Assembly (NCBI GenBank): GCA_964518725.1
Contig: CAZFKP010000015.1
Coordinates: 1,450 to 65,449, forward strand
Direction of reading: 5' to 3'
DNA length: 64,000 nucleotides
DNA from: an uncultured Rickettsiales bacterium
Lineage (GTDB): Bacteria > Pseudomonadota > Alphaproteobacteria > Rickettsiales > SXRF01
Of this stretch, positions 3,406-43,454 are shown piece by piece; position 1 is the stretch's first letter, and each line of letters begins with the position of its first letter. The position numbers and the translations under genes are program-made. Below the pieces are notes generated by a model. It did no database searches. It saw only the letters and a program-made list of their open reading frames with translations, and was not told where the DNA came from.

Positions 3406-4121
3406 GGCGTGTCCTGAATTTTGCTGCTGTAGCGGGTGACAGTAAACGATACGGGATTCACCATACCAGTTTTTTTATCGATTTCAACGCCGCTGTAATC
3501 ATAGCTGATCGTGGCCTTATGGCGGCTCCTGCTCGACCCTTCCGCGCTGATCAGGGTTGCATCATACACCACCTCCACCGTATTGGCGGGTGACAGTAGC
3601 CGCTGCACCGATACCGGATCAATGATGCGCGCCGTGTGGCGCTGGTATTTCACCACCGGGCTATCCGGGTTGCCAGTCTGGATCATCCGCTGGTAGCCGG
3701 CGAACACTTCCGGCGTGGCATGGTGCTCGATGCCGCCGTAATTCCGTTCCAGCAGGTTGATGTTGTAGCCTTCGTAATGCGCGACGAATGTCTTGGCCAT
3801 GAAGAACAGCACGGCCTCATCGGTCGTCTGCTGATAGCTGCTCCGCAGCGGCGTGATGCTCGGCAGATCTTCCAGCACATCATTCAGCGCGTAGATAAAC
3901 GGCACCGGCCGCTTGAGCGGGTACAGCTCGCGCACCGCCATGACCGAGAACATCAGCGTCAGCAAGGCGACGGTGGTGACGAACACATAAAAATAGCGCT
4001 CGGACATCGGGTCGTTCACCGAGACGTCATACATGCTTTTTGCCTCGCGGAAATATTCCCCACTGCGTACTTTTTCCGCGATCTGGATATAATCATCCGG
4101 TGTGGGTTCTTTATATTTCAT
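3402..4121 (-). CDS. virB8: VirB8-family type IV secretion inner-membrane protein
   Basis: 239 aa. It has a cytoplasmic N-terminus, one TM helix (YFYVFVTTVALLTLMFSVMAV) and a periplasmic NTF2-like region of VirB8 length. Its stop overlaps the virB9 start (ATGA at 3402-3405). Confidence 0.75.
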   Translation of the reverse strand: MKYKEPTPDDYIQIAEKVRSGEYFREAKSMYDVSVNDPMSERYFYVFVTTVALLTLMFSVMAVRELYPLKRPVPFIYALNDVLEDLPSITPLRSSYQQTTDEAVLFFMAKTFVAHYEGYNINLLERNYGGIEHHATPEVFAGYQRMIQTGNPDSPVVKYQRHTARIIDPVSVQRLLSPANTVEVVYDATLISAEGSSRSRHKATISYDYSGVEIDKKTGMVNPVSFTVTRYSSKIQDTP

Positions 4122-8583: not shown

Positions 8584-9951
8584 TTAGAGATACCCCTTCA
8601 CCGCCCGGCTTGCAACTATTTTCCCGTTTTCGGCGAAGGCCTCGTGGTTTTCATCAATCTCATCGAGCTTGTAATAATAGTTGGCCATCATGCCTGCCGA
8701 CTGTTTCAACCCCTTGGCGGAGGTGTCACCCAGCCAGTTGAGCCGCTCCAGCCGCGCCCCGTTGAACAGGTGGAAATTGGCGACCGGGTCGAGCGGGCGG
8801 CTGTGCTTCTTTTCTTTGAGCAGGTAATGGGCGCAGAGCTTGATCAACAGAGGCTTTAGCTTCTCAGCCTGTTTTGCATCCTTGTGCCAGTCCCCATCCA
8901 GCTGTTTGAGCTTCGCCACATCTTCTTTGCCCAGAAGGTCGGAGGCGCCTTTTTCGATCAGCGGGTCGAGCCATGCGCGGAACCCCGGCACCGGCGAGAG
9001 GGTGGCGTAGGTTTTGATATTTTTCATTTCACTTGAGAGTTTTTCCACCACCCGCTTAATCAGGAAGTTGCCGAAGCTGATGCCGGAGAGCCCCTTTTGC
9101 GCGTTGGAAATGGAATAGAAAATGGCCGTATCGGCTTCGCTGATATCGCCGGTGGCGGCTTTCTCGTCGAGCAGTTTCTGCACATTGTCGCTCATGCCGG
9201 AGACGAGTGCGACGTGCACAAAAATTAGCGGCTCGGCAGGCATTTTGTGATGGAAGAAAGCGAACACGCGGCGATCGGCATCGAGGCGATTTTTCAAATC
9301 CTCCCACGACGATACGCGGTGCACCGCCTCATACTCGATCAGTTTTTCCAGAATCGCCGCAGGTGAATCCCATGAAATTTCCACCAGGTCGAGCAGCGCC
9401 ACATCGAACCAGCTTGAAAGTATTTGTTTCAGGTCGAATTCCAGCGCTTTGAGCTTCGCATCATTGCCGATGATCGGCAGTAAATCGGCACGCATATTGA
9501 CGAGGAATTTAAACCCATCCGGCAGCGCGGTGAACTGGCGGAGAATGGTACTGCGCGGTGTAGCCAGTGCTTCGCGCATTCCGATTTCCAGCGCCAGCTT
9601 CTCATCGGGCTTGGCGTTGGCGTAGTCCTGCGTGAGTTTGGTGAGTTTTTCGTGGTTCACATCAAAATCACCTGCCAGCATGGCCAGGAATTTCTTTCGC
9701 CCGGCCTCGTTCAATCCCAGGTAAATGCGGCCAAGCTCGGCGGTGTTGGCGCGTGCCGTCACCTCGCCGCCCGGCGAATCAAGGCAGAGCATCATCCGCT
9801 TGCGAAGCTCATCCTCATCTTCTTTCGGCAGGTTCGGGCGAATCTCGCTGGAAAAGACGTGAAACGCTGTGCCTTTCACCTCTTGCCAGGTGCGAAGCAG
9901 GCTCGCAACGGTTTTGCGGCGGAGATGGGTGATGCTGGATGATTCACTCAT
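8584..9951 (-). CDS. Malonyl-CoA decarboxylase family protein
   Basis: 455 aa. Strings ...ISWDSPAAILEKLIEYEAVHRVSSWEDLKNRLDADRRVFAFFHHKMPAEPLIFVHVAL... and ...FYSISNAQKGLSGISFGNFLIKRVV... are typical of the MCD/MatA family. Confidence 0.82.
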   Translation of the reverse strand: MSESSSITHLRRKTVASLLRTWQEVKGTAFHVFSSEIRPNLPKEDEDELRKRMMLCLDSPGGEVTARANTAELGRIYLGLNEAGRKKFLAMLAGDFDVNHEKLTKLTQDYANAKPDEKLALEIGMREALATPRSTILRQFTALPDGFKFLVNMRADLLPIIGNDAKLKALEFDLKQILSSWFDVALLDLVEISWDSPAAILEKLIEYEAVHRVSSWEDLKNRLDADRRVFAFFHHKMPAEPLIFVHVALVSGMSDNVQKLLDEKAATGDISEADTAIFYSISNAQKGLSGISFGNFLIKRVVEKLSSEMKNIKTYATLSPVPGFRAWLDPLIEKGASDLLGKEDVAKLKQLDGDWHKDAKQAEKLKPLLIKLCAHYLLKEKKHSRPLDPVANFHLFNGARLERLNWLGDTSAKGLKQSAGMMANYYYKLDEIDENHEAFAENGKIVASRAVKGYL

Positions 9952-10728: not shown

Positions 10729-11748
10729 GTGAAGCGTCTTTATCTCCATATCGGTACAGAAAAAACCGGCACGACCAGCCTGCAAAATTTTCTGTTGGCC
10801 AATGAAAATGCGCTCAACGAGGTCGGTTTTTCCTATTTATGCGGGGATGACAAACCTTATTTTTACCAGTTGACCCATTTGCCGCTCATCGCATCCCTGC
10901 TCGGCGTTAAAAACTCGCATTTTCCCGAGCAGCGCCATCCTGCTGAAACCATACTGCAATGCCTGAAGGATGATCTGGCGGCAAGCGACAAGGATATCAT
11001 CCTGTCGTCCGAAGAATTTTCCACCCGTATTCATGACAAACAATCGCTTGCCAAATTACGCGAGGTCGCGGGGGAACGTGAGGTTTATATCGTATGTTAC
11101 ATACGCCCTCAGGATGAGCTGGCGATTTCTTCCTATAGCACCAACGTGCTCTATGGCCGCACGGCGCCATTCAGCTCCGATGATGTCGTTTTCGAAAACC
11201 GCTATTTCAACTATGCCGCCTTGCTGGGGCCATGGGCCTCAATGTTTGGCTCGGACAGGTTGATCGTTCGGAATTATCAGCGTTCCGCGCTGGTCAAAGG
11301 CGATATATGCCAAGATTTTCTGGGCGTATTGGGTATCGAGGATATGACGGCGTTTGCTCCCGTTTGTGAGTGGAACGCCTCTCTCGATGTGCGGCAAGTG
11401 GAGGTGTTGAGGCTATTCAACATGTATATGCCCCCCACTTCAAGCCCGTCCGCCTACAAAGAAGCGCAAAATATGCGCCTCTGTCTGTCACGTTACTTGC
11501 CACGGGGAGAGCCTTTGCAGCAAATCCTCTCAACCGAGGAACGCAAAGCCATCCTCGCCGAATTTGTGGAGGCCAACCGGGAGGTGGAGCGCCGTTATAT
11601 GACTCCCGGCGCTCTGGCCGGCTGGAACGGCGAATCCGTGCTCGGCCTGCCGAGTCAGCCTCTCCATCCCGTAGATATGAATGATCTGTGCGAGACGATC
11701 AAGCTGCTGACGGAAAAGCTCATGGCGCTCGAAAATTCTAAAGAGTAA
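10729..11748 (+). CDS. Sulfotransferase-family protein (putative)
   Basis: 339 aa. The N-terminal HIGTEKTGTTSLQ resembles the PAPS 5'-phosphosulfate-binding loop (PKxGTTxL), and CYIRPQDELAISSYS resembles the 3'-phosphate-binding RxxxxxxS motif. Confidence 0.55.
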   Translation: MKRLYLHIGTEKTGTTSLQNFLLANENALNEVGFSYLCGDDKPYFYQLTHLPLIASLLGVKNSHFPEQRHPAETILQCLKDDLAASDKDIILSSEEFSTRIHDKQSLAKLREVAGEREVYIVCYIRPQDELAISSYSTNVLYGRTAPFSSDDVVFENRYFNYAALLGPWASMFGSDRLIVRNYQRSALVKGDICQDFLGVLGIEDMTAFAPVCEWNASLDVRQVEVLRLFNMYMPPTSSPSAYKEAQNMRLCLSRYLPRGEPLQQILSTEERKAILAEFVEANREVERRYMTPGALAGWNGESVLGLPSQPLHPVDMNDLCETIKLLTEKLMALENSKE

Positions 11749-11833
11749 CCACGCCGCCCTATCCGCTTAATTGCTCGACAAAACAGCTCTTATCCCATAA
11801 AAAGCGTATTCACTTTAATCCCAAGGTTTTTCT

Positions 11834-13042
11834 ATGTCGCAAAAAATTAAAAAAGTCGTGCTCGCCTATTCGGGCGGCCTTGATACTTCCATCATCCTAC
11901 GCTGGCTGCAGGAGCAGTATGGCTGCGAAGTCGTGACCTTCACCGCCGACCTCGGCCAGGGCGAGGAAATTGAACCCGCTCGCGCCAAAGCCAAGATGAT
12001 GGGCGCGAAGGAAATCTATATCGAAGACCTGCGCGAGGAATTCGTGCGCGATTTCGTGTTCCCGATGTTTCGCGCCAATGCGCTGTATGAAGGTGTGTAT
12101 TTGCTCGGCACGTCGATCGCCCGCCCGCTCATTTCCAAACGCCAGATCGAGATTGCGAAAGAAACCGGCGCCGATGCGGTCGCCCACGGCGCCACCGGCA
12201 AAGGCAACGACCAGGTGCGGTTCGAGCTCGGCTATTATGGCCTGAATCCTGATATTAAAGTGATCGCCCCGTGGCGCGAATGGGATTTGACCTCGCGCAC
12301 GAAACTCATCGAATATGCCGAGAAGCACCAGATTCCGATCGCGAAAGACAAGCGCGGCGAAGCCCCCTACTCTACCGACGCGAACCTGTTGCATATTTCC
12401 TACGAAGGCAAGGTGCTGGAAGATCCGTGGGTGGCGCCGCATGAGGATATGTTCACGCGTTCGGTATCGCCGGAAAAGGCGCCCGATAAGCCTGAATTCA
12501 TCGAAGTAGAATTTAAGAATGGCGATGCAGTAGGCGTGAATGGCGAAAAACTTTCCCCTGCCATGCTACTCACCAAACTCAACGAACTCGGTGGCAAGCA
12601 CGGCATTGGGCGGCTCGACCTGGTTGAAAACCGCTATGTCGGCATGAAATCGCGTGGCGTATACGAAACGCCCGGCGGCACAATTTTACTCGCGGCCCAT
12701 CGCGGTATTGAAAGTATTACGTTAGACCGTGGCGCCATGCATCTGAAAGACGAGATGATGCCGCGCTACGCCGAGCTGATTTATAACGGCTATTGGTGGT
12801 CGCCGGAGCGCAAAATGCTGCAGGCGCTTATCGACGAATCGCAACGCAATGTCGAGGGCATCGTGCGGCTGAAACTGTTTAAAGGCAGCGTGAGTGTCGA
12901 TGGCCGTAAATCCACCAAATCGCTCTATTCCGAAAAACACGTGACCTTTGAGGACGACGCAGGCGCCTACGACCAGAAAGACGCGGCTGGATTCATCAAG
13001 CTCAACGCGCTCCGGCTACGGCTTTTGGGGCGGCAGGGTTAA
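11834..13042 (+). CDS. argG: Argininosuccinate synthase
   Basis: 402 aa with [13 protein letters not shown] (ATP pyrophosphatase motif) and [15 protein letters not shown]. Confidence 0.97.
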
Positions 13043-32312: not shown

Positions 32313-33668
32313 GTGATTCACCCAGAAATTTTCCGTGAGTACGATATCCGTGGCGTGACCACGGATAATTTTACCGGTGAGGTGGTCGCCGCAATCGCGC
32401 GCGCCTTCGCCGGAAAAGCCGGCGGTACGGTGGTCATTGCCCGCGACGGCAGGTTATCCTCACCGGCACTCGCTAAAGCATTGGCGGCCGGTTTGCGTGA
32501 CGGCGGCTGCGATGTGGTCGATATCGGCCTCGCCCCAACCCCGATGCTGTATTACGCCACCACCACGCTCAACGCCGCAGGCGGCGTCATGCTTACCGGT
32601 TCGCATAACCCGCCCGACCATAACGGCATGAAATTCATGCTGCACGGAAAAGCCTTTTATGGCGCGCAGATCCAGCAGTTACGGGAAATTGCCGAACAGG
32701 CAAACGCCGGTGCCGGCGCGAGCATGGGCAACTATTCTGAACTCACTATCCAGCGCGAATATCTTCACGCGCTACATGAAGCCTATGATGGCACCCGTGA
32801 TCTGAAAGTAGCATGGGACGCAGGTAATGGTGCTACCGGTGAGGTGATGGCAGCACTCTGCGCTACCCTGCCCGGCACGCACATCACCTTAAACGAAACA
32901 ATCGACGGCACCTTCCCAGCGCATCATCCCGACCCCACCATCCCCAAAAATCTTGTGCAATTGATAGATAGGGTCAGGAAAGAACAATGCGACCTTGGGA
33001 TTGCCTTTGATGGCGATGGCGACCGCATCGGCGTGGTGGATAATGAAGGCGAAATCCTCTGGGGCGACCAGCTATTGATGCTGTATGCCGCCGATATCCT
33101 GAAAAAACTCCCGGGTGCCACCATCATTGCCGATGTGAAAGCGTCCGGCGCCTTGTTCGACGAGGTGAAACGCCTGGGTGGCGTACCGCTAATGTGGAAA
33201 ACCGGACATTCGTTGATTAAATCCAAAATGGCGGAAACGAAAGCGCCGCTGGCCGGTGAAATGAGCGGCCATATTTTCTTCGCCGATAAATATTACGGGT
33301 TTGACGATGCGCTCTATGCCGCGGTGCGCCTGATCGGCGTGCTGTCACGCAGCGGTAAGACACTCTCCGAGTTGCGCGATGCCTTGCCCAAGCGGATCAA
33401 TACCCCGGAAATCCGCTTTGCCTGTGATGATACGCGGAAATTTGATGTCATCAGCGAAGTCAAATCCAGGCTCAAGGCGGCGGGCGCCGATTTTTCAGAT
33501 GTGGACGGCGTGCGGGTGAACACACCCGACGGCTGGTGGCTGCTGCGCGCCTCCAACACCCAGCCGATGCTGGTGGCGCGTTGCGAAGCTCAGGATTTCT
33601 CAGGTTTAGCGGCACTGAAACAAGACTTGCAGAAGGAACTCGCATTCAGTAATGTCGCCCTTCCCTAG
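32313..33668 (+). CDS. Phosphomannomutase/phosphoglucomutase
   Basis: 451 aa from a GTG start. It has TGSHNPPDHNGMKF (phosphoserine loop), FDGDGDR (Mg site) and GEMSGHIFF. Confidence 0.9.
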   Translation: MIHPEIFREYDIRGVTTDNFTGEVVAAIARAFAGKAGGTVVIARDGRLSSPALAKALAAGLRDGGCDVVDIGLAPTPMLYYATTTLNAAGGVMLTGSHNPPDHNGMKFMLHGKAFYGAQIQQLREIAEQANAGAGASMGNYSELTIQREYLHALHEAYDGTRDLKVAWDAGNGATGEVMAALCATLPGTHITLNETIDGTFPAHHPDPTIPKNLVQLIDRVRKEQCDLGIAFDGDGDRIGVVDNEGEILWGDQLLMLYAADILKKLPGATIIADVKASGALFDEVKRLGGVPLMWKTGHSLIKSKMAETKAPLAGEMSGHIFFADKYYGFDDALYAAVRLIGVLSRSGKTLSELRDALPKRINTPEIRFACDDTRKFDVISEVKSRLKAAGADFSDVDGVRVNTPDGWWLLRASNTQPMLVARCEAQDFSGLAALKQDLQKELAFSNVALP

Positions 33669-33851
33669 GTCTTAAGCTGCCTCCGTTCGCGCCTGCTGGC
33701 GCTCACATGAGGCCTCGCTCAAGGCTGGCGCGGCCTGCTTGCCGCGCTTTATTTGATTTCAGGCGCAGAACCGCTTCAAGCCTGAAATCGGCAATATGAA
33801 GCGCTTAAAAGTACACTGAGCGAAGCGAAGAACTTTTAAGTGAATTAGTGT

Positions 33852-33928
33852 CGGAGTGTGGCGCAGCCCGGTAGCGCACTTGCATGGGGTGCAAGGGGTC
33901 GAAGGTTCGAATCCTTTCACTCCGACCA
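33852..33928 (+). tRNA. tRNA-Pro (anticodon GGG)
   Basis: 77-nt cloverleaf folded by hand. Acceptor CGGAGTG/CACTCCG, D arm GCGC-AGCCCGGTA-GCGC, anticodon arm CTTGC-ATGGGGT-GCAAG, T arm GAAGG-TTCGAAT-CCTTT, and an encoded CCA. Confidence 0.9.
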
Positions 33929-33945
33929 TTTTAATCTGAACCGCC

Positions 33946-33959
33946 GCAGGTTCTGAACC
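33946..33959. repeat. Left copy of a 14-bp direct repeat gcaggttctgaacc (T-arm-like hairpin GCAGG-TTCTGAA-CCTGC)
   Basis: It is identical to 35112-35125. Related ggttctgaaatcc occurs at 33975-33987. An exact 13-nt copy of the tRNA-Pro T arm (aggttcgaatcct) lies at 34038-34050. Confidence 0.65.
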
Positions 33960-34068
33960 TGCCTCAAAACGTGCGGTTCTGAAATCCCAATGTTTGACCT
34001 CCCCCAAATTAAGAGTATTGTTTCACCTAGTGTTTTTAGGTTCGAATCCTGTGAGGAGGGGTTGTTAT

Positions 34069-34974
34069 ATGTCTGTAAATACTTACGCATTCGAATGTAA
34101 AATCAATACACTTGCTTCATGCGTCGGAAAAATGCCTCTGAATTCTAATTCTTTTGAATTTGAGGGGATAAAATTTGCTCACTGGGAATTTAACTTTGCC
34201 GAAGGATGGAAACCAGGGGGGTGGCTTGTTACAGGCAAGACTCAAGCAGGCACATTTCATGAAGCACGCATAGCGTTGTGGCATAAATTAAATGATTTGA
34301 TTCCGAAAATTGCCATGATTTCGCAGTGCTACACTGAGTATTTGCAGGAACCATTTATTATCCATCGATTAGACACCGATGTTGCTTTGTTTTACTACTC
34401 GAAAGCAACAAGTGGTGTCCCATTACATTTTGATGAAGAATCACAAGAAGCACTTGCTCTTTTGGCAAATAAAGAACTTTCCAATGAGTTTTATTATTAC
34501 TGGAACGATATGCTCAATAACACGGGTTATCCTGCAAAGATTTTGCTAATTTGCTCAGCTTTAGAAGCATTAGGAAAAGCATTGGGAAAAGACAAGGGCG
34601 CATTTAGAAAAGAAGTTCTTGGTGATGTTCTGAGTAAAAAAGTCTTTGAAAAGGACAACCAAGGCATCAGACACAGACTGACTCATGGAGAGTATTTTTC
34701 GCCAAAAGATGCGGGAGAAGATTACCTTACTCAAATCTACGAAAAGATAATTCAATATTTTAATGATGTGATATTAAAGAAGCACCTCATCAGAAACGTG
34801 GTCAATCCGCAGCGACATCCATGGGGAAATAAAAAAGCAGGCTATTACTATTTAAAAAAGAAACCTGAGGATTTGTTCTCTCTTAAAGAGATGCTTGATG
34901 CTTTTGATAAAGATTTTGATGGATCTATTGCGAAGTTTGAGATGCTCACCCGCGATGAAGCAGAAAACTCATAA
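34069..34974 (+). CDS. Hypothetical protein with HEPN-like Rx4H motif (islet cargo)
   Basis: 301 aa from the ATG at 34069, preceded by a gaggagg RBS. GC is about 40% against about 57% in neighbouring genes. The C-terminal helical region contains GIRHRLTHGEY (R-x4-H, nt 34669-34686). Confidence 0.55.
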   Translation: MSVNTYAFECKINTLASCVGKMPLNSNSFEFEGIKFAHWEFNFAEGWKPGGWLVTGKTQAGTFHEARIALWHKLNDLIPKIAMISQCYTEYLQEPFIIHRLDTDVALFYYSKATSGVPLHFDEESQEALALLANKELSNEFYYYWNDMLNNTGYPAKILLICSALEALGKALGKDKGAFRKEVLGDVLSKKVFEKDNQGIRHRLTHGEYFSPKDAGEDYLTQIYEKIIQYFNDVILKKHLIRNVVNPQRHPWGNKKAGYYYLKKKPEDLFSLKEMLDAFDKDFDGSIAKFEMLTRDEAENS

Positions 34975-35111
34975 CATCTACATGATGTATAGCACTATAC
35001 CTCTCGTAATACTAAGTATTCCATATCAGAAGTTACCCTCTCCACCATCTGCGGAATGTGCATATACTTCTTTGCAATCCACATCTGTAAAATCAATAGC
35101 CTACGCTCATG

Positions 35112-35146
35112 GCAGGTTCTGAACCCGTCCACGAGGGTCGACCATT
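35112..35146. repeat. Right copy of the 14-bp direct repeat plus a degenerate tRNA 3'-end-like sequence (att-like)
   Basis: gcaggttctgaacc is followed by cgtccacgagggtcGACCATT. GACCATT matches the 3' end and flank of tRNA-Pro (33924-33930). Confidence 0.5.
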
Positions 35147-35159
35147 AAACTAAATTACT

Positions 35160-36329
35160 TTAGTCGCCATAGGGTGGGGAGTGCCTTCCTGCCGCAGGAT
35201 TGATTGGGGATCTTGGCGCTACTGCAGCAGTGTGGTGGCCTACTATGGATGCTGGGGCAGGCGCCCATTTTGCCGCTGTCATCTGTTCTTTTGAACACAA
35301 TTTTACCGAATTCAGGAAATGGTGAATGTCATCAAAATGCACTGCGGCAGCGGTTGCGCGTCCACCACCGTCCCTGGCAATAGTAGTTTTTAGGTACTTT
35401 GCGATTTCACCGACATCCGGTACTCCATTTGAACGCAAGGAAAGCGATACGCCTGCATCACCATTGACATTCCAGATTCCAACGACATCATACCCCTCCG
35501 CCGCTTTAAGGAATGCCTGATCAATGCGCCGGTTATATTGCAGGACGTTGGCGTTGATAAGGGGAACCCACATCGGCGGCATGCCAGGAAGCAATTCCAG
35601 ACTGGCATAGGTCATCGAATTCTTGAGAGCTTTCTGTATCTGACTGAATTGTCCGGCAATCATGGAATTGCCACTCGCAACCATTTCGCTATCTTTTAAA
35701 TTAATGAGGTAATCGATTGCCTGAAACGCCATCTCCGGAGTTGAGATATCCTCCCCGTCGATCAGCGCCGCCCTTGCCCATTCATCATCGGCTTCAAGGC
35801 TGTCCGCCTCCATTTTTCCTATCCAGTTAAATAGGTCTGGAGCTAGTTTGCCAGGATTAAAATGTTCCCATGCCAGCAAAGCCGCCGCAGGTTTTTTGGA
35901 ATCCAATATCAGGTCAAGATTCGGTTTGGGAGAGGTTTGCGTCTCGCCCGTGCCAGCGTCCTGCCTATGGGTATTTGCATAGTTCTGAAGGCGCCGAATT
36001 TCGGATGAATGGTGATCCACAATGGTAATGGTAGCGATGTTTGGGCGACCATCGGTAGGGCGGAATAATAAATCCAATGTTTGATTGTCAGGTGCTGTAT
36101 CAAGAAAAATGATGCGGCCGCCTGAATTTAAATGAGCACAATTTTGTAGAATCTTATCTTGCCTAAACAAATCATAACCAACCGGCACATATCGAACTTT
36201 TTCTCCAAGCCCATCATCATTTAATGATTCATTGAATGCCCACGCGGCGGCGGCGCCATCAATATCGTCGTCGTAAAATACAAGGATGTCTGTTGGTTCG
36301 CTCATACGGCCACTTTGATTAACGTTCAT
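35160..36329 (-). CDS. DHH/DHHA1-family phosphoesterase
   Basis: 389 aa with motif I YDDDIDGAAAAWAF, motif II IFLDTAP, motif III ITIVDHHSS and a DHHA1-type GGGRATAAAV. Confidence 0.72.
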   Translation of the reverse strand: MNVNQSGRMSEPTDILVFYDDDIDGAAAAWAFNESLNDDGLGEKVRYVPVGYDLFRQDKILQNCAHLNSGGRIIFLDTAPDNQTLDLLFRPTDGRPNIATITIVDHHSSEIRRLQNYANTHRQDAGTGETQTSPKPNLDLILDSKKPAAALLAWEHFNPGKLAPDLFNWIGKMEADSLEADDEWARAALIDGEDISTPEMAFQAIDYLINLKDSEMVASGNSMIAGQFSQIQKALKNSMTYASLELLPGMPPMWVPLINANVLQYNRRIDQAFLKAAEGYDVVGIWNVNGDAGVSLSLRSNGVPDVGEIAKYLKTTIARDGGGRATAAAVHFDDIHHFLNSVKLCSKEQMTAAKWAPAPASIVGHHTAAVAPRSPINPAAGRHSPPYGD

Positions 36330-36478
36330 TCAGGCTATCAGCAGAAATTAAATAATACGTAAAATTGTGGCTTATGTCCATCCTGTTGGAAATAATGGTG
36401 ATTCTACTATATCTAGCTGGCCATGGTCGTTAAACAGCAGAGAACAACATGATTTGGTGTGGTTTGGACGACACGCGC

Positions 36479-36745
36479 CTAGTAAACCAGCCGTTCGACC
36501 AGTATTTTCTCACACGCTTTAAAAATGATATAGAACACGGTCGCGGCCATGCCGTAAGCGATTAGCTCCAGCAGCTGCATCACGGCGCCTTCCCGCAGCG
36601 CATCTCCGCCATATTGAGAAATAAAATCGAAATTCGCATGAAACACCGTGAAAAGATTGACTGAGCAAAGCCCAAACGCCAGCGCACTCAGGCACATTAT
36701 CGTGAAGGTCACTAGCCAATGGCACTTAAGGATTTTCTTGATCAT
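36479..36745 (-). CDS. Small two-TM membrane protein (hypothetical)
   Basis: 88-aa ORF with two hydrophobic helices (WLVTFTIMCLSALAFGLCSV and LLELIAYGMAATVFYIIF). I recognise no family. Confidence 0.4.
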   Translation of the reverse strand: MIKKILKCHWLVTFTIMCLSALAFGLCSVNLFTVFHANFDFISQYGGDALREGAVMQLLELIAYGMAATVFYIIFKACEKILVERLVY

Positions 36746-36830
36746 GCACGCCTAGCTAGGATGGTTTTGTGCACGCTGTCAAGCCACTCGGATAGACAGC
36801 CGTCAAAATACGTGGGAAGGTTACTTATCT

Positions 36831-37430
36831 TTAAGTAGCCCGAATTAGTACATAACCCCTTGGGGTGGAAATCGGTTCGATCTGCAGGGTAAAAATATGT
36901 GGCCTGTTATCTGCACCCGCCTTCATGGTAATAGGAAAGCTGCACGCACTTTCCGCTACTAGCGTCGCCGCCAGCTTTTCCCACTCACTATGGGGGACAC
37001 TCTGCATATTGCACAACGTGGCTGTATTGAGCGATGGCTGTGAAAGAAACCCGGGGAACATATCCTGAAATTGCCGGTTGAGGTAAACAATCTCACCATC
37101 GTAGCGCGCAATAAAACAGAAGCGATAATCTTTGCTGATTACCGAAGAAAAAGCAGCGTTGATAAATTCGGATGATAGCTGATTGCGATTGATAAGCTGA
37201 AGTTGCTTGCTGATAAAAAACATCATGATGCCGGAAACAAAGCAAATATAGAATCCGGTGAGCATATCGTAATACAGTACCCCGACAATCGCCAGGATCA
37301 CCACGGATAACACCATGAAGAAATGTGATAAAAGATTTGCTGGCGTATGCCTGCGAACGATAAAGCCGCTGTGTTTTACATCCAGATATTGATTTCTGTC
37401 GGCGGTGCGGAAATAGGCTTCTGACTGCAT
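36831..37430 (-). CDS. Membrane-anchored PAS-like protein, paralogue of the CckA-like sensor N-terminus
   Basis: 199 aa with two TM helices, then ...SEFINAAFSSVISKDYRFCFIARYDGEIVYLNRQFQDMFPGF...LQIEPISTPRGYVLIRA. This aligns with ...TEFQNALFASAMGLHNKFCLIIKRDGSIIYLDRSFQNLFPDF...LSVEPIMRPSGFTMLRG of ORF 55688-56710. Confidence 0.6.
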   Translation of the reverse strand: MQSEAYFRTADRNQYLDVKHSGFIVRRHTPANLLSHFFMVLSVVILAIVGVLYYDMLTGFYICFVSGIMMFFISKQLQLINRNQLSSEFINAAFSSVISKDYRFCFIARYDGEIVYLNRQFQDMFPGFLSQPSLNTATLCNMQSVPHSEWEKLAATLVAESACSFPITMKAGADNRPHIFTLQIEPISTPRGYVLIRAT

Positions 37431-38399: not shown

Positions 38400-38834
38400 T
38401 TATTTTCTAGTAGGGGTGTCACCCGGCACTTCTTGTCTGACTTCTTCAACAAAATCCTCCCATGTTTGGTGATTTGCCCCATCCACCGTTGGGTATTTAA
38501 GGTGTCCCCCGACAAGGTCATTACCAGGCGGCGTGTAAGGTTCGATAGGTCCATAGAGGAATTCCCCTTCCGTTCCACTAATTTTGCTGCCAAGCGCATC
38601 GAGGTCATCCGGGTTATAGCGCCATCTGCCGCGATCGCTGAATCGACGAATATGCCCCTCTTCACTCAGACGTTCTAGTGTTTTGCCACTTATTCCCAGA
38701 TACCTCGCGGCATCTTCCGTTTCACGATAGTGTTTTCCTGGAGGGGGAGTTTGATCCAACCAATTATGATTTTTATCTTTGCTCATATTTACCCCTACAA
38801 AACGCAGCATTTGCTTGATTTTTTCAGCCGACAT
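38400..38834 (-). CDS. Helix-turn-helix (excisionase/MerR-like HTH) domain protein
   Basis: ...YRETEDAARYLGISGKTLERLSEEGHIRRFSDRGRWRYNPDDLDAL... is a typical HTH_17-type pattern. The start is uncertain (38834 or MSKDKNH at about 38786). Confidence 0.55.
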   Translation of the reverse strand: MSAEKIKQMLRFVGVNMSKDKNHNWLDQTPPPGKHYRETEDAARYLGISGKTLERLSEEGHIRRFSDRGRWRYNPDDLDALGSKISGTEGEFLYGPIEPYTPPGNDLVGGHLKYPTVDGANHQTWEDFVEEVRQEVPGDTPTRK

Positions 38835-42127: not shown

Positions 42128-43346
42128 GGGATGTCCGCTTGTCCCGCAGGTTGACAGCCATCAGCATGCCAATCGGCATCCAGAAAATAATCCAGAACGG
42201 CCCGGCATTACGAATGACGCGGTTTTGATCCGTGATACCCACGCAAAGCGCGTGCAACAAGAGTGCAGTAGCAAGAAAATACATATATTTCCCCTTATTG
42301 TCTTGAGGGGGAGAGCGATAAATACTCAGGCATAAAACGGTAAACAGGTAGAGTGCAGCCGGAATACCTGCATAAAACGCCGTTGAAAGATAGATATTAT
42401 GCGGGTTGTCCCTATTCTGCGCCCCGATTTCTGCCGGTGTTTCCAGATTGGCGCTCCACCCATAACCAAACCATGGGTGAGCAATAATTTTCTCAAGCGT
42501 TTGTTTCCATATCTCGATTCTAAATGACAGCCCACGAGCAAGCATACGGTCATAACGCTGCATCAGCATGTCGTGAATGGTCGGATTATAGATCGATACG
42601 CACACAATAACCGCGAGCAGGATAATAGAAATCAACAGGGTTTTCTTTGATTTTACGGCGCTGATGGCCAGCCAGCCAAACGCAACCAACAAATACATAA
42701 TCGTGCTAACCCGGGTTTCCATCAAAATCAGCATGTAACCGATCAAACAAAACACCATCACATAGAACGGTTTTAGTTTTTTGGTTGTAGTCGTTTCATA
42801 AAGATACAGAATAATCATCGCCGCCATTGTGTACATGTAGGCTGCAACGGTCGGGATATTGGCGCGACCAATCGGGATAAGCCGCAAATTCTGGTATTTT
42901 CCATGATAATTGTACAGGATAAGCGATACGATCGCGCACGCCAACACAGCCAACACCAAGAAATTAAAGAACCGGACGAGATGTTTTTCTTCGATGTATG
43001 CAAAATAGATAATGGTGCCGATCAGGAAGGCGACAATCGCCAGTACATGGTTGATCGTTTTCGCAAATTGTACCGCGCCGTCATTAATAAAAATGGCGTG
43101 GATCATGACGTAAATAAAAAAGACAGAATAAGCACGCAAAAGCGGCTGGCGCGCAATGACCGTAATGCGATCCTTGTGCTGAAATCCATAGTACAGCGAA
43201 GCTGGCAAAAGAAGCCCATAAAATGCGAGCGTAGTAAAAAATCCACCCGTTACGGTATATTGCACCAGGATAAACAGTTCATAGGCAATAAAAAAAAGCG
43301 GTAGCTTCAGATGCTCTCTTACTTTACTTTGCAGTGATTCTGGCAT
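42120..43346 (-). CDS. O-antigen ligase / O-antigen polymerase family (Wzy_C) membrane protein
   Basis: 408 aa with about 11 TM helices and a periplasmic loop ...RGLSFRIEIWKQTLEKIIAHPWFGYGWSA...HNIYLSTAFYAGIPA... typical of the RfaL/Wzy_C family. Confidence 0.78.
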   Translation of the reverse strand: MPESLQSKVREHLKLPLFFIAYELFILVQYTVTGGFFTTLAFYGLLLPASLYYGFQHKDRITVIARQPLLRAYSVFFIYVMIHAIFINDGAVQFAKTINHVLAIVAFLIGTIIYFAYIEEKHLVRFFNFLVLAVLACAIVSLILYNYHGKYQNLRLIPIGRANIPTVAAYMYTMAAMIILYLYETTTTKKLKPFYVMVFCLIGYMLILMETRVSTIMYLLVAFGWLAISAVKSKKTLLISIILLAVIVCVSIYNPTIHDMLMQRYDRMLARGLSFRIEIWKQTLEKIIAHPWFGYGWSANLETPAEIGAQNRDNPHNIYLSTAFYAGIPAALYLFTVLCLSIYRSPPQDNKGKYMYFLATALLLHALCVGITDQNRVIRNAGPFWIIFWMPIGMLMAVNLRDKRTSHD

Positions 43347-43454
43347 GGCGTAAAATATCTATAAGCGTTGTGGGAACAAAGGCATTTTTAGCAGATTGGC
43401 AATGAAGAATATACAGCACTTTCAACCAATACAATTACAACGGAAATAAATCCA

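Follow-up and report, generated by a model that had tools for sequence, protein, structure and literature searches.

A 1.2-kb low-GC islet at a tRNA-Pro gene of an uncultured Rickettsiales bacterium and the defence-associated gene family that it carries

We analysed a 64-kb stretch of contig CAZFKP010000015.1 from an uncultured Rickettsiales bacterium, referred to below as the window, in which a 1.2-kb islet of low guanine-cytosine (GC) content lies directly 3′ of an intact tRNA-Pro(GGG) gene. The islet carries one intact gene, encoding a protein of 301 amino acids (aa) that belongs to an uncharacterised family found in other genomes among restriction-modification (R-M) and further anti-phage genes. 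The best overall explanation of the locus, and in our view the probable one, is a PrrC/ApeA-like abortive-infection ribonuclease (RNase) residing on an integrase-less mini-island.

The islet and its ends

The GC content of the islet is 39.4 %, as against 53.0 % for the window as a whole and 54.1 % for the 5 kb upstream, making it the lowest-GC stretch of 1.2 kb within the window (z = -3.3). GC content at third codon positions shows the same foreign composition, with 0.35 for the cargo open reading frame (ORF) compared to 0.65 for the neighbouring glmM. An earlier interpretation made from the DNA letters only, here called the sequence-only reading, had described the drop correctly and had given its surroundings as 57 % GC, where about 54 % is found. 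The second-lowest stretch, at about 42250-43450 of the window, has 43 % GC.

Both ends of the islet are marked by repeats (Table 1). An exact 14-bp direct repeat, GCAGGTTCTGAACC, occurs at 33946-33959 and 35112-35125; an exact repeat of this length arose in 10 of 2000 shuffles of the region (0.5 %). The 9-mer GGTTCTGAA is present three times in the window (33949, 33975 and 35115), each time on the plus strand and at an islet end, where 0.28 occurrences would be expected and three or more were reached in none of 100 shuffles. Common to both ends is also CGACCATT (33923-33930 and 35139-35146), 8 bp long here and 6-10 bp in other copies of the element. When the last 33 nt on the right are aligned to tRNA-Pro, they match its T arm and acceptor end at a level equalled by one of 5000 shuffles, a weak but real match. 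The right end, read on the minus strand, folds well (z = -2.75). The direct repeat, the echo of the tRNA 3′ end in its right copy, the hairpin at the left border, the motif at 33975-33987 and the 13-nt copy of the T arm at 34038-34050 had all been pointed out in the sequence-only reading, and all are present. Other than the 301-aa gene the islet contains short chance ORFs and nothing else, and an integrase gene was found neither among the genes within about 5 kb nor elsewhere in the window.

The same module in other hosts

Copies of the module were identified in further metagenome loci. The two closest homologues of the protein come from other alphaproteobacterial metagenome-assembled genomes. 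Locus L083, from a very AT-rich host, encodes an 87 % identical protein after a different tRNA-Pro(GGG) gene, and L166 encodes an 83 % identical protein after tRNA-Pro(TGG), adjoining dapA and smpB. Both contain the left and right flanks of the window copy in the same order, with similarity ending at ...GGGTCGACCA, whereas the host DNA outside the module is unrelated and the gene neighbourhoods differ. A third copy, L084/L085, encodes a 72 % identical protein between diverged versions of both flanks. The flanks were found only in a close clade comprising the window, L083, L166, L084/L085 and L003, the last of which is described below, and scanning metagenome contigs with a DNA pattern of the right flank returned no matches. 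Upstream of the intact tRNA-Pro(TGG) gene of L166, at a distance of about 55 nt, its 5′ half is partially duplicated (2313-2345). A truncated close copy (P0259) sits on a 103-kb contig.

Alignment of the left flanks of the window, L083, L166 and L084 showed that the 17-bp palindrome keeps its position in all of them and that the -35 element of the promoter candidate is conserved, while the 17-nt spacer next to the tRNA is weakly conserved. The counterpart of the leader in L083 and L084 reads AGGTTAGAATCCT. The right terminal block is nearly invariant across all five copies, and inter-copy similarity stops there. Identity between the flanks of different copies is otherwise close to that at synonymous sites of the gene, the right-terminal 33 nt being the exception in that they are almost invariant. 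The T-arm-like motifs follow one another in the same order in L083 and L166, at different tRNA-Pro genes, and in L084, where there is no tRNA. They had been taken in the sequence-only reading for scars of repeated integration; since they are present in hosts with differing tRNA-Pro genes, they are instead part of the mobile unit.

The single cargo gene of the window copy is a derived state. Between the cargo gene and the right flank, and convergent to the former, L083 (1261-1512, minus strand) and L166 (about 3630-3880, minus strand) carry an ORF that spans about 85 aa and contains three membrane helices; it is cleanly deleted in the window and missing in L084. The islet holds one intact ORF behind a GAGGAGG ribosome binding site, as had been proposed, but the element earlier carried a second, membrane gene, which may have encoded a partner or immunity protein of the ancestral element. 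As a consequence of this deletion, the right flank of the window copy is partly the relic upstream region of the lost gene. A minus-strand reading of this flank (WSTLVDGFRTCHERRLLILQMW...) resembled the C-terminus of a P4-type integrase and was considered as an integrase remnant. This candidate was dropped: the frame contains a stop in L083, begins at the element border, and is open for read-through across a circular junction in the window only. A better account of the stretch is that it combines the end site with what used to lie upstream of the lost membrane gene.

In most relatives glmM is followed by tRNA-Pro(GGG). The nearest of these, L003, has a GlmM 82 % identical and a tRNA 100 % identical to those of the window and is the sole relative with the same downstream pheA and DAHP synthase genes; it lacks all four genes that separate the tRNA from pheA in the window. 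Its tRNA-Pro gene is followed by an 80-aa GIY-YIG ORF (11721-11963) and by an unrelated low-GC ORF of 221 aa (12033-12698) with an N-terminal membrane helix and no match in Pfam or PADLOC. The 221-aa ORF is preceded by the leader of the window copy (about 50 bp, T-arm look-alike and ribosome binding site included) and followed by its right flank (about 115 bp, ending ...CCCGTCCACGAGGTTCGACCATT). The borders are thus common to the window and L003 and the ORFs between them differ, meaning that the cargo has been swapped, in the one case seen. Three further genes of the window, at 35160-37430 on the minus strand (46.7 % GC), are also absent from L003, so that the variable region at tRNA-Pro is larger than the islet; they encode a 389-aa DHH/DHHA1-type protein with two relatives only in a collection of 5.8 billion proteins, and proteins of 88 and 199 aa with weak, sub-threshold Pfam matches only. 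A 794-bp metagenome contig (run X5) is 98.7 % identical to 33534-33930 and then continues into unrelated sequence, which shows strain-level variation exactly at the left border.

Composition, the copies in L083 and L166 and the neighbouring genes bear out the view of an acquired islet that lacks an integrase and whose ends are marked by repeats. It is a small mobile unit that prefers tRNA-Pro 3′ ends and has no recombinase of its own.

Beyond the islet, the neighbouring genes encode GlmM, the DHH/DHHA1 protein, the two small proteins, PheA, an HTH_17 protein and DAHP synthase, and the window is otherwise ordinary chromosome, with recA, ilvD and genes for flagella and cytochrome c maturation. 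The HTH_17 (excisionase/AbiEi-like) protein, 144 aa in length, is encoded at 38400-38834 on the minus strand, with pheA on one side and the DAHP synthase gene on the other; in L003 a pair of different small ORFs takes this position, the second of which, starting MIFDSSAIIAI, we take from its sequence to be a candidate VapC/PIN toxin. Its GlmM relatives assign the window to an uncultured alphaproteobacterium of the type that genome studies list as 'Rickettsiales bacterium', and reads matching the window come from biofilter metagenomes. Two RNA candidates were rejected. For a structured RNA, the right-end hairpin lacks covariation, the leader fold reaches z = -2.1 only and Rfam finds nothing in the region besides the tRNA. 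For RNA repeats of a type III toxin-antitoxin system (ToxIN/AbiF-like), Tandem Repeats Finder detects no array in 33800-34068, which holds dispersed 9-nt motifs only.

Table 1 Features of the tRNA-Pro islet (window positions)
Feature	Position	Strand	Basis or remarks
tRNA-Pro(GGG), intact, CCA encoded; presumed integration target	33852-33928	+	ARAGORN; Rfam tRNA, 59.9 bits
Left short terminal repeat, last tRNA bases CGACCA plus TT	33923-33930	+	Sequence
Left-end spacer, 17 nt, from tRNA end to first T-arm-like repeat	33929-33945	+	Flank alignment
Left T-arm-like repeat, perfect 17-bp palindrome GCAGG-TTCTGAA-CCTGC (GCAGGTTCTGAACCTGC)	33946-33962	+	Holds left copy of the 14-bp repeat
Second GGTTCTGAA motif (GCGGTTCTGAAATCC)	33973-33987	+	Conserved in L083, L084 and L166
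Sigma-70-like promoter candidate, TTGACC-16 nt-TATTGT, upstream of the ORF	33994-34021	+	Consensus scan, pattern match only
Conserved leader	34032-34068	+	T-arm look-alike AGGTTCGAATCCT, 13 nt, 34038-34050; ribosome binding site GAGGAGG, 34054-34060
Cargo gene, 301 aa, putative HEPN-like RNase effector	34069-34974	+	GAGGAGG 8 nt before ATG
Right flank, relic	34990-35111	none	Homologous stretch in L083 and L166 lies upstream of the minus-strand membrane ORF
Right terminal block GCAGGTTCTGAACCCGTCCACGAGGGTCGACCATT, presumed right attachment site (attR)	35112-35146	+	Right copy of the 14-bp repeat, degenerate tRNA-Pro 3′-end look-alike and CGACCATT

The cargo protein family and its genomic company

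The 301-aa protein starts with an N-terminal alpha/beta domain (residues 1-115 approximately) and continues with a helical domain (about 120-240), after which comes a small C-terminal part containing NPQRHP; its full-length AlphaFold model is confident, with a predicted local distance difference test (pLDDT) score of 89. Searches of NCBIfam, PADLOC, PDB sequences and Pfam, the last up to E = 10, gave no match, in keeping with the earlier remark that the protein resembles no named system. A search of 5.8 billion proteins returned 99 homologues, nearly all of 295-320 aa and all unnamed, and a profile search of 1.84 billion cluster representatives gave 369 matches, which marks the family as real but rare. 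No relatives were present in 2.9 million viral contigs, and a phage origin was rejected. Short forms of about 190 aa without the N-terminal domain (P0243, P0253) occur on many contigs (22 for P0243) and may represent a separate sub-family or truncated genes.

The R-x4-H pattern that the sequence-only reading singled out in the segment GIRHRLTHGEY is real and conserved across the family. R201, R203, L204 and H206 (LRHRLxHGEYF), W145 and N150 (FYYYWNDxxN) and A164 (SAxEAL) are invariant, and Q248, R249 and H250 (NPQRHP) are nearly so. R201 and H206, which form the Rx4H motif, are invariant in 57 aligned members as well as in a 27-sequence alignment of the domain. The ratio of nonsynonymous to synonymous substitution rates (dN/dS) is 0.29-0.32 among close copies and 0.11 to the more distant L168; judged by these values, the cargo gene is functional and under purifying selection.

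To describe the genomic company of the family, 80 further metagenome loci were compared and dereplicated to 65 groups, and 79 immediate neighbours were inspected. These include 12 DNA methylases (type I HsdM, type III Mod and EcoRI-like), three HsdS, two GmrSD, two ResIII helicases and one MjaI endonuclease. At about a third of the informative loci the family gene directly follows a DNA methylase gene within an R-M operon, and the family is not typically solitary. An HsdM-X-HsdS order (X being the family gene) with 4-bp overlaps and HsdR nearby was found at L108, L120, L132, L135 and others; further arrangements are type III Mod-X-(Res), EcoRI-like methylase-(GmrSD)-X and Mrr-X. The window copy has no R-M partner. 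Directly upstream of the family gene in L136 (4062-5009) and L142 (1197-2141), and overlapping it by 4 bp, lies a gene for a 314-aa protein that matches nothing in Pfam or PADLOC and carries an Rx4H-type motif of its own (VLRNQLAHSG); it could be a second HEPN-like partner.

Other members reside in islands with different defence systems. A tRNA-Val island in L130 (3140-8645), bounded by an exact 19-bp repeat of the 3′ part of the tRNA (at 8627) and with no integrase seen in it, begins with the family gene and continues with Gabija (GajA, 1e-156; GajB, 4e-119). The defence island of L167 (2379-8897) contains a type XI retron reverse transcriptase-protease and a SIR2-APAZ/short prokaryotic Argonaute system, followed by the family gene, whose start is overlapped by an ORF of 177 aa without assigned function. 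Several members lie less than 300 bp downstream of tRNA genes (Pro, Ser, Asp, Val, Asn) and in the same orientation. At L168 (2588-2805) a 63 % identical member is separated by 232 bp from the tRNA-Asn gene ahead of it; within this interval the tRNA 3′ end is repeated over 12 nt, the flanks are unrelated to the module of the window, and the downstream sequence reads like what we presume to be a cobalamin riboswitch. This genomic company is the signature of an anti-phage gene, and the anti-phage function proposed in the sequence-only reading is to that extent upheld.

A proposed abortive-infection RNase and its alternatives

HEPN proteins are defined by an Rx4-6H motif, which the family possesses in R201 and H206. 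Further marks of the superfamily are an all-alpha core built as a four-helix up-down bundle, in which the last core helix begins with the motif, and metal-independent RNase activity from a composite site of the dimer. The model of the helical domain (residues 116-242) is all-helical with a pLDDT of 91.7, and Rx4H lies after a long helix at domain residues 61-78 (protein residues 176-193). The best PDB match of this model in Foldseek, though not significant, is an HEPN toxin. The only recurring theme among weak Pfam matches of single members, which at E values of 0.02-0.5 are below curated thresholds, is HEPN: three families of the clan are included, namely RiboL-PSP-HEPN (PF18735; 0.024), MAE_28990/MAE_18760-like HEPN (PF18737; 0.066) and HepT (PF01934; 0.053). 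Their number exceeds chance expectation and suggests a relationship, all three being sub-threshold. These families likewise have Rx4H at a helix start and are linked to methylase or ParB genes (PMC3710099); the present family differs from PF18735 in having no fused L-PSP domain and from PF01934 in having no MNT partner. Taken together, we regard HEPN membership of the family as slightly more probable than its opposite.

Two characterised systems offer the closest comparison. A 2013 survey of HEPN domains (PMC3710099), with PrrC as its worked example, counted no fewer than 16 HEPN clades with links to R-M systems and proposed the same latent-RNase logic for them. Like PrrC of the EcoprrI type Ic R-M locus, members of the family sit inside type I R-M operons beside hsdM and hsdS and have a C-terminal helical domain with an Rx4H-type motif, as would suit a latent RNase serving as a second line of defence (PMC3710099). 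PrrC, however, is larger and carries an N-terminal ATP-binding cassette (ABC) ATPase domain, whereas proteins of this family have about 300 aa, lack any ABC-ATPase domain, show no detectable sequence similarity to PrrC and begin with an unrelated small alpha/beta domain of 115 residues that has no match. ApeA and DARNA are single-protein HEPN defences that cut tRNA anticodon loops after sensing infection-derived ligands (ApeA: bioRxiv 10.64898/2026.01.26.701840). ApeA (HEPN_Apea, PF18739) resembles the family in being a single gene, sometimes within R-M operons, and would resemble it further in combining HEPN with a ligand-binding or sensor part (PMC3710099). It acts by abortive infection through tRNA cleavage (bioRxiv 10.64898/2026.01.26.701840), the likeness here being to the mode proposed for the cargo. 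Size and domain order differ, and neither the query nor any of 57 members matches the ApeA profile in Pfam or PADLOC.

Under the explanation that we favour, the cargo would be an HEPN-type RNase that works as a dimer, its composite active site being built from Arg201 and His206, with the N-terminal alpha/beta domain acting as a sensor or binding a partner. The enzyme would be latent and switched on during phage infection. Copies embedded in R-M operons would probably have the methylase complex as their partner, and for those flanked by hsdM and hsdS a phage disabling the restriction complex would free the RNase, as with PrrC. In solitary copies such as that of the window, which have no R-M partner, activation would have to be direct. 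Once active, the enzyme may cut tRNA or mRNA, thereby stopping translation and aborting the infection.

As to the carrier, the module was most likely placed at the 3′ end of tRNA-Pro(GGG) by a site-specific recombinase supplied in trans, with crossover probably within or beside the common CGACCA(TT). The simplest view would be a cis-mobilisable mini-island whose recombinase is encoded outside it. Tyrosine recombinases that target tRNA genes use a core site of the form stem-7 nt-stem, and the T-arm-like motifs bearing GGTTCTGAA at both ends are likely protein-binding sites with a role in recombination. Known cis-mobilisable elements, which have attachment sites without an integrase and are moved by the integrase of a related element, share with the islet the tRNA 3′ end location, deviant GC content, a short tRNA-end repeat, a tRNA-like right end and the want of an own recombinase. 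The islet differs from them in its very small size (1.2 kb), in the additional GGTTCTGAA motifs at both ends and in having one copy away from any tRNA; no helper element for it was identified.

A number of observations weigh against this explanation. On the side of the protein, the profile and structure searches against HEPN families that the sequence-only reading had suggested yielded no significant match. In Foldseek searches with the domain model the best PDB match was the HEPN toxin 7ae8_B, which is not significant (E = 2.6, template modelling (TM) score 0.28), followed by 7ae6_B (TM 0.32) and 1kan_A (TM 0.38), and the full-length model had no significant match in PDB or BFVD. No HEPN profile of Pfam reached significance with the query or family members, the query having no Pfam match at all, and sequence-profile searches of PDB did not retrieve HEPN. 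Searches of the 1.84 billion representatives and with the domain profile returned family members only and gave no bridge to a named family. The cargo gene was present in none of the RNA runs searched, and as the window copy has no R-M partner, control of the PrrC type cannot apply to it as such. On the side of the carrier, comparison with relatives gave a different cargo at the site in L003 and a contig diverging at 33930, and no clean empty site; L003 is the only relative with a glmM-linked tRNA-Pro that is close enough. No junction skipping the islet was present in metagenome contigs, and neither a circular form nor a recombinase was seen. Terminal identity extends over 6-10 bp only, the L084 copy adjoins no tRNA, and conservation of the flanks at the level of synonymous sites reflects mostly recent common descent.

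A first alternative is an inactive remnant of a larger tRNA-Pro island, from which the integrase and other genes were deleted and whose T-arm-like motifs are fossil attachment sites. Such decay would account for the lack of a nearby integrase, the evident internal deletion of the membrane gene, the mostly neutral-level conservation of the flanks, the right-end hairpin without covariation and the presence of more variable DNA to the right (35160-37430). However, the same short unit with the same two ends stands beside three different tRNA-Pro genes in different hosts, which is hard to obtain by independent decay of larger islands, and even copies that have diverged further keep the terminal 33 nt with hardly any change. 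We consider a remnant of this kind somewhat unlikely.

A second alternative concerns the protein rather than its carrier, namely that it is an accessory or regulatory R-M subunit and not an RNase, modulating the methylase or restriction activity or coupling another signal to it, with Rx4H serving other chemistry or a ligand and the window copy being a stray of little function. It is to methylase genes, from three types of R-M system, that the family is most tightly linked, and the stop codon of one gene often overlaps the start codon of the next; no significant similarity to HEPN or to any nuclease was detected. Against a subunit role, many members without adjacent R-M genes (among them those of the window, L083, L166, L084 and L168) remain under purifying selection, other copies stand beside non-R-M defence systems, and the invariant residues resemble a catalytic motif. 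This alternative appears to us unlikely.

One could go further than the favoured explanation and suppose an unrecognised class of R-M-coupled effectors that are physically coupled to type I, II and III methylases as a 'guard', fire once a phage has disabled the R-M system, and occur also alone on a 1.2-kb recombinase-less cassette accepting different defence cargos between its conserved borders at tRNA-Pro genes. The cassette would then amount to a tRNA-anchored integron-like system in uncultured alphaproteobacteria, with the T-arm-like motifs as recombination or regulatory sites. The islet does recall integron cassettes and defence hotspots in having one promoter-proximal ORF between short conserved borders and a different ORF in L003. 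It differs in that its right end has no attC-type site (no RYYYAAC/GTTRRRY cores) and that neither IntI nor a cassette array occurs in the window. We think this extension quite improbable. The family is, as we see it, an uncharacterised one within the known class of R-M-linked HEPN-type effectors, on a carrier module that is unusually small.

The protein might alternatively be an addiction toxin of a toxin-antitoxin pair, stabilising the mini-island or the R-M operon, with the lost membrane protein, a leader RNA or a host factor as antidote. In favour of this are the convergent small gene that once accompanied the cargo in the ancestral element, the repeated motifs ahead of the cargo gene, and the existence of HEPN toxins countered by a protein or an RNA (HepT/MNT, AbiF; bioRxiv 10.64898/2026.02.22.705581). 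Yet the membrane gene has gone from the window and L084 while the main ORF persists, the leader holds no tandem repeat array, the repeats sit upstream of the sole promoter-like site, and the R-M-embedded copies have no conserved small partner, all of which makes an addiction role decidedly doubtful. Finally, a non-autonomous single-strand (IS200/IS605-like) element, with the palindromes as transposase hairpins and ACCA as target, would fit the directly oriented palindromic motif 17 nt inside the left end, its match about 20 nt inside the right end and the folding of the right-end minus strand (z = -2.75), but is highly improbable given that the hairpins are not kept in other copies and show no compensatory changes, that no tnpA or tnpB is found anywhere in the loci, and that the tRNA-like right end better fits a tRNA-targeting recombinase.

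Each of the four alternatives fits fewer of the observations than an abortive-infection RNase on an integrase-less mini-island. The sequence-only reading is thereby confirmed in what it observed and partly supported in how it interpreted the locus. If the favoured explanation is correct, a sequence-orphan family of about 370 clusters, none of them in Pfam, NCBIfam or PADLOC, would join the RNase-type abortive-infection effectors, and its 1.2-kb integrase-less carrier would show how individual immune genes pass from genome to genome in the absence of a complete island. The methylase-adjacent position of the family across three R-M types makes the PrrC idea, that of an RNase restrained by a restriction complex, testable in a second, unrelated and much smaller protein. 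Should the protein not be of HEPN type, it would still be an unstudied, conserved partner of R-M systems.

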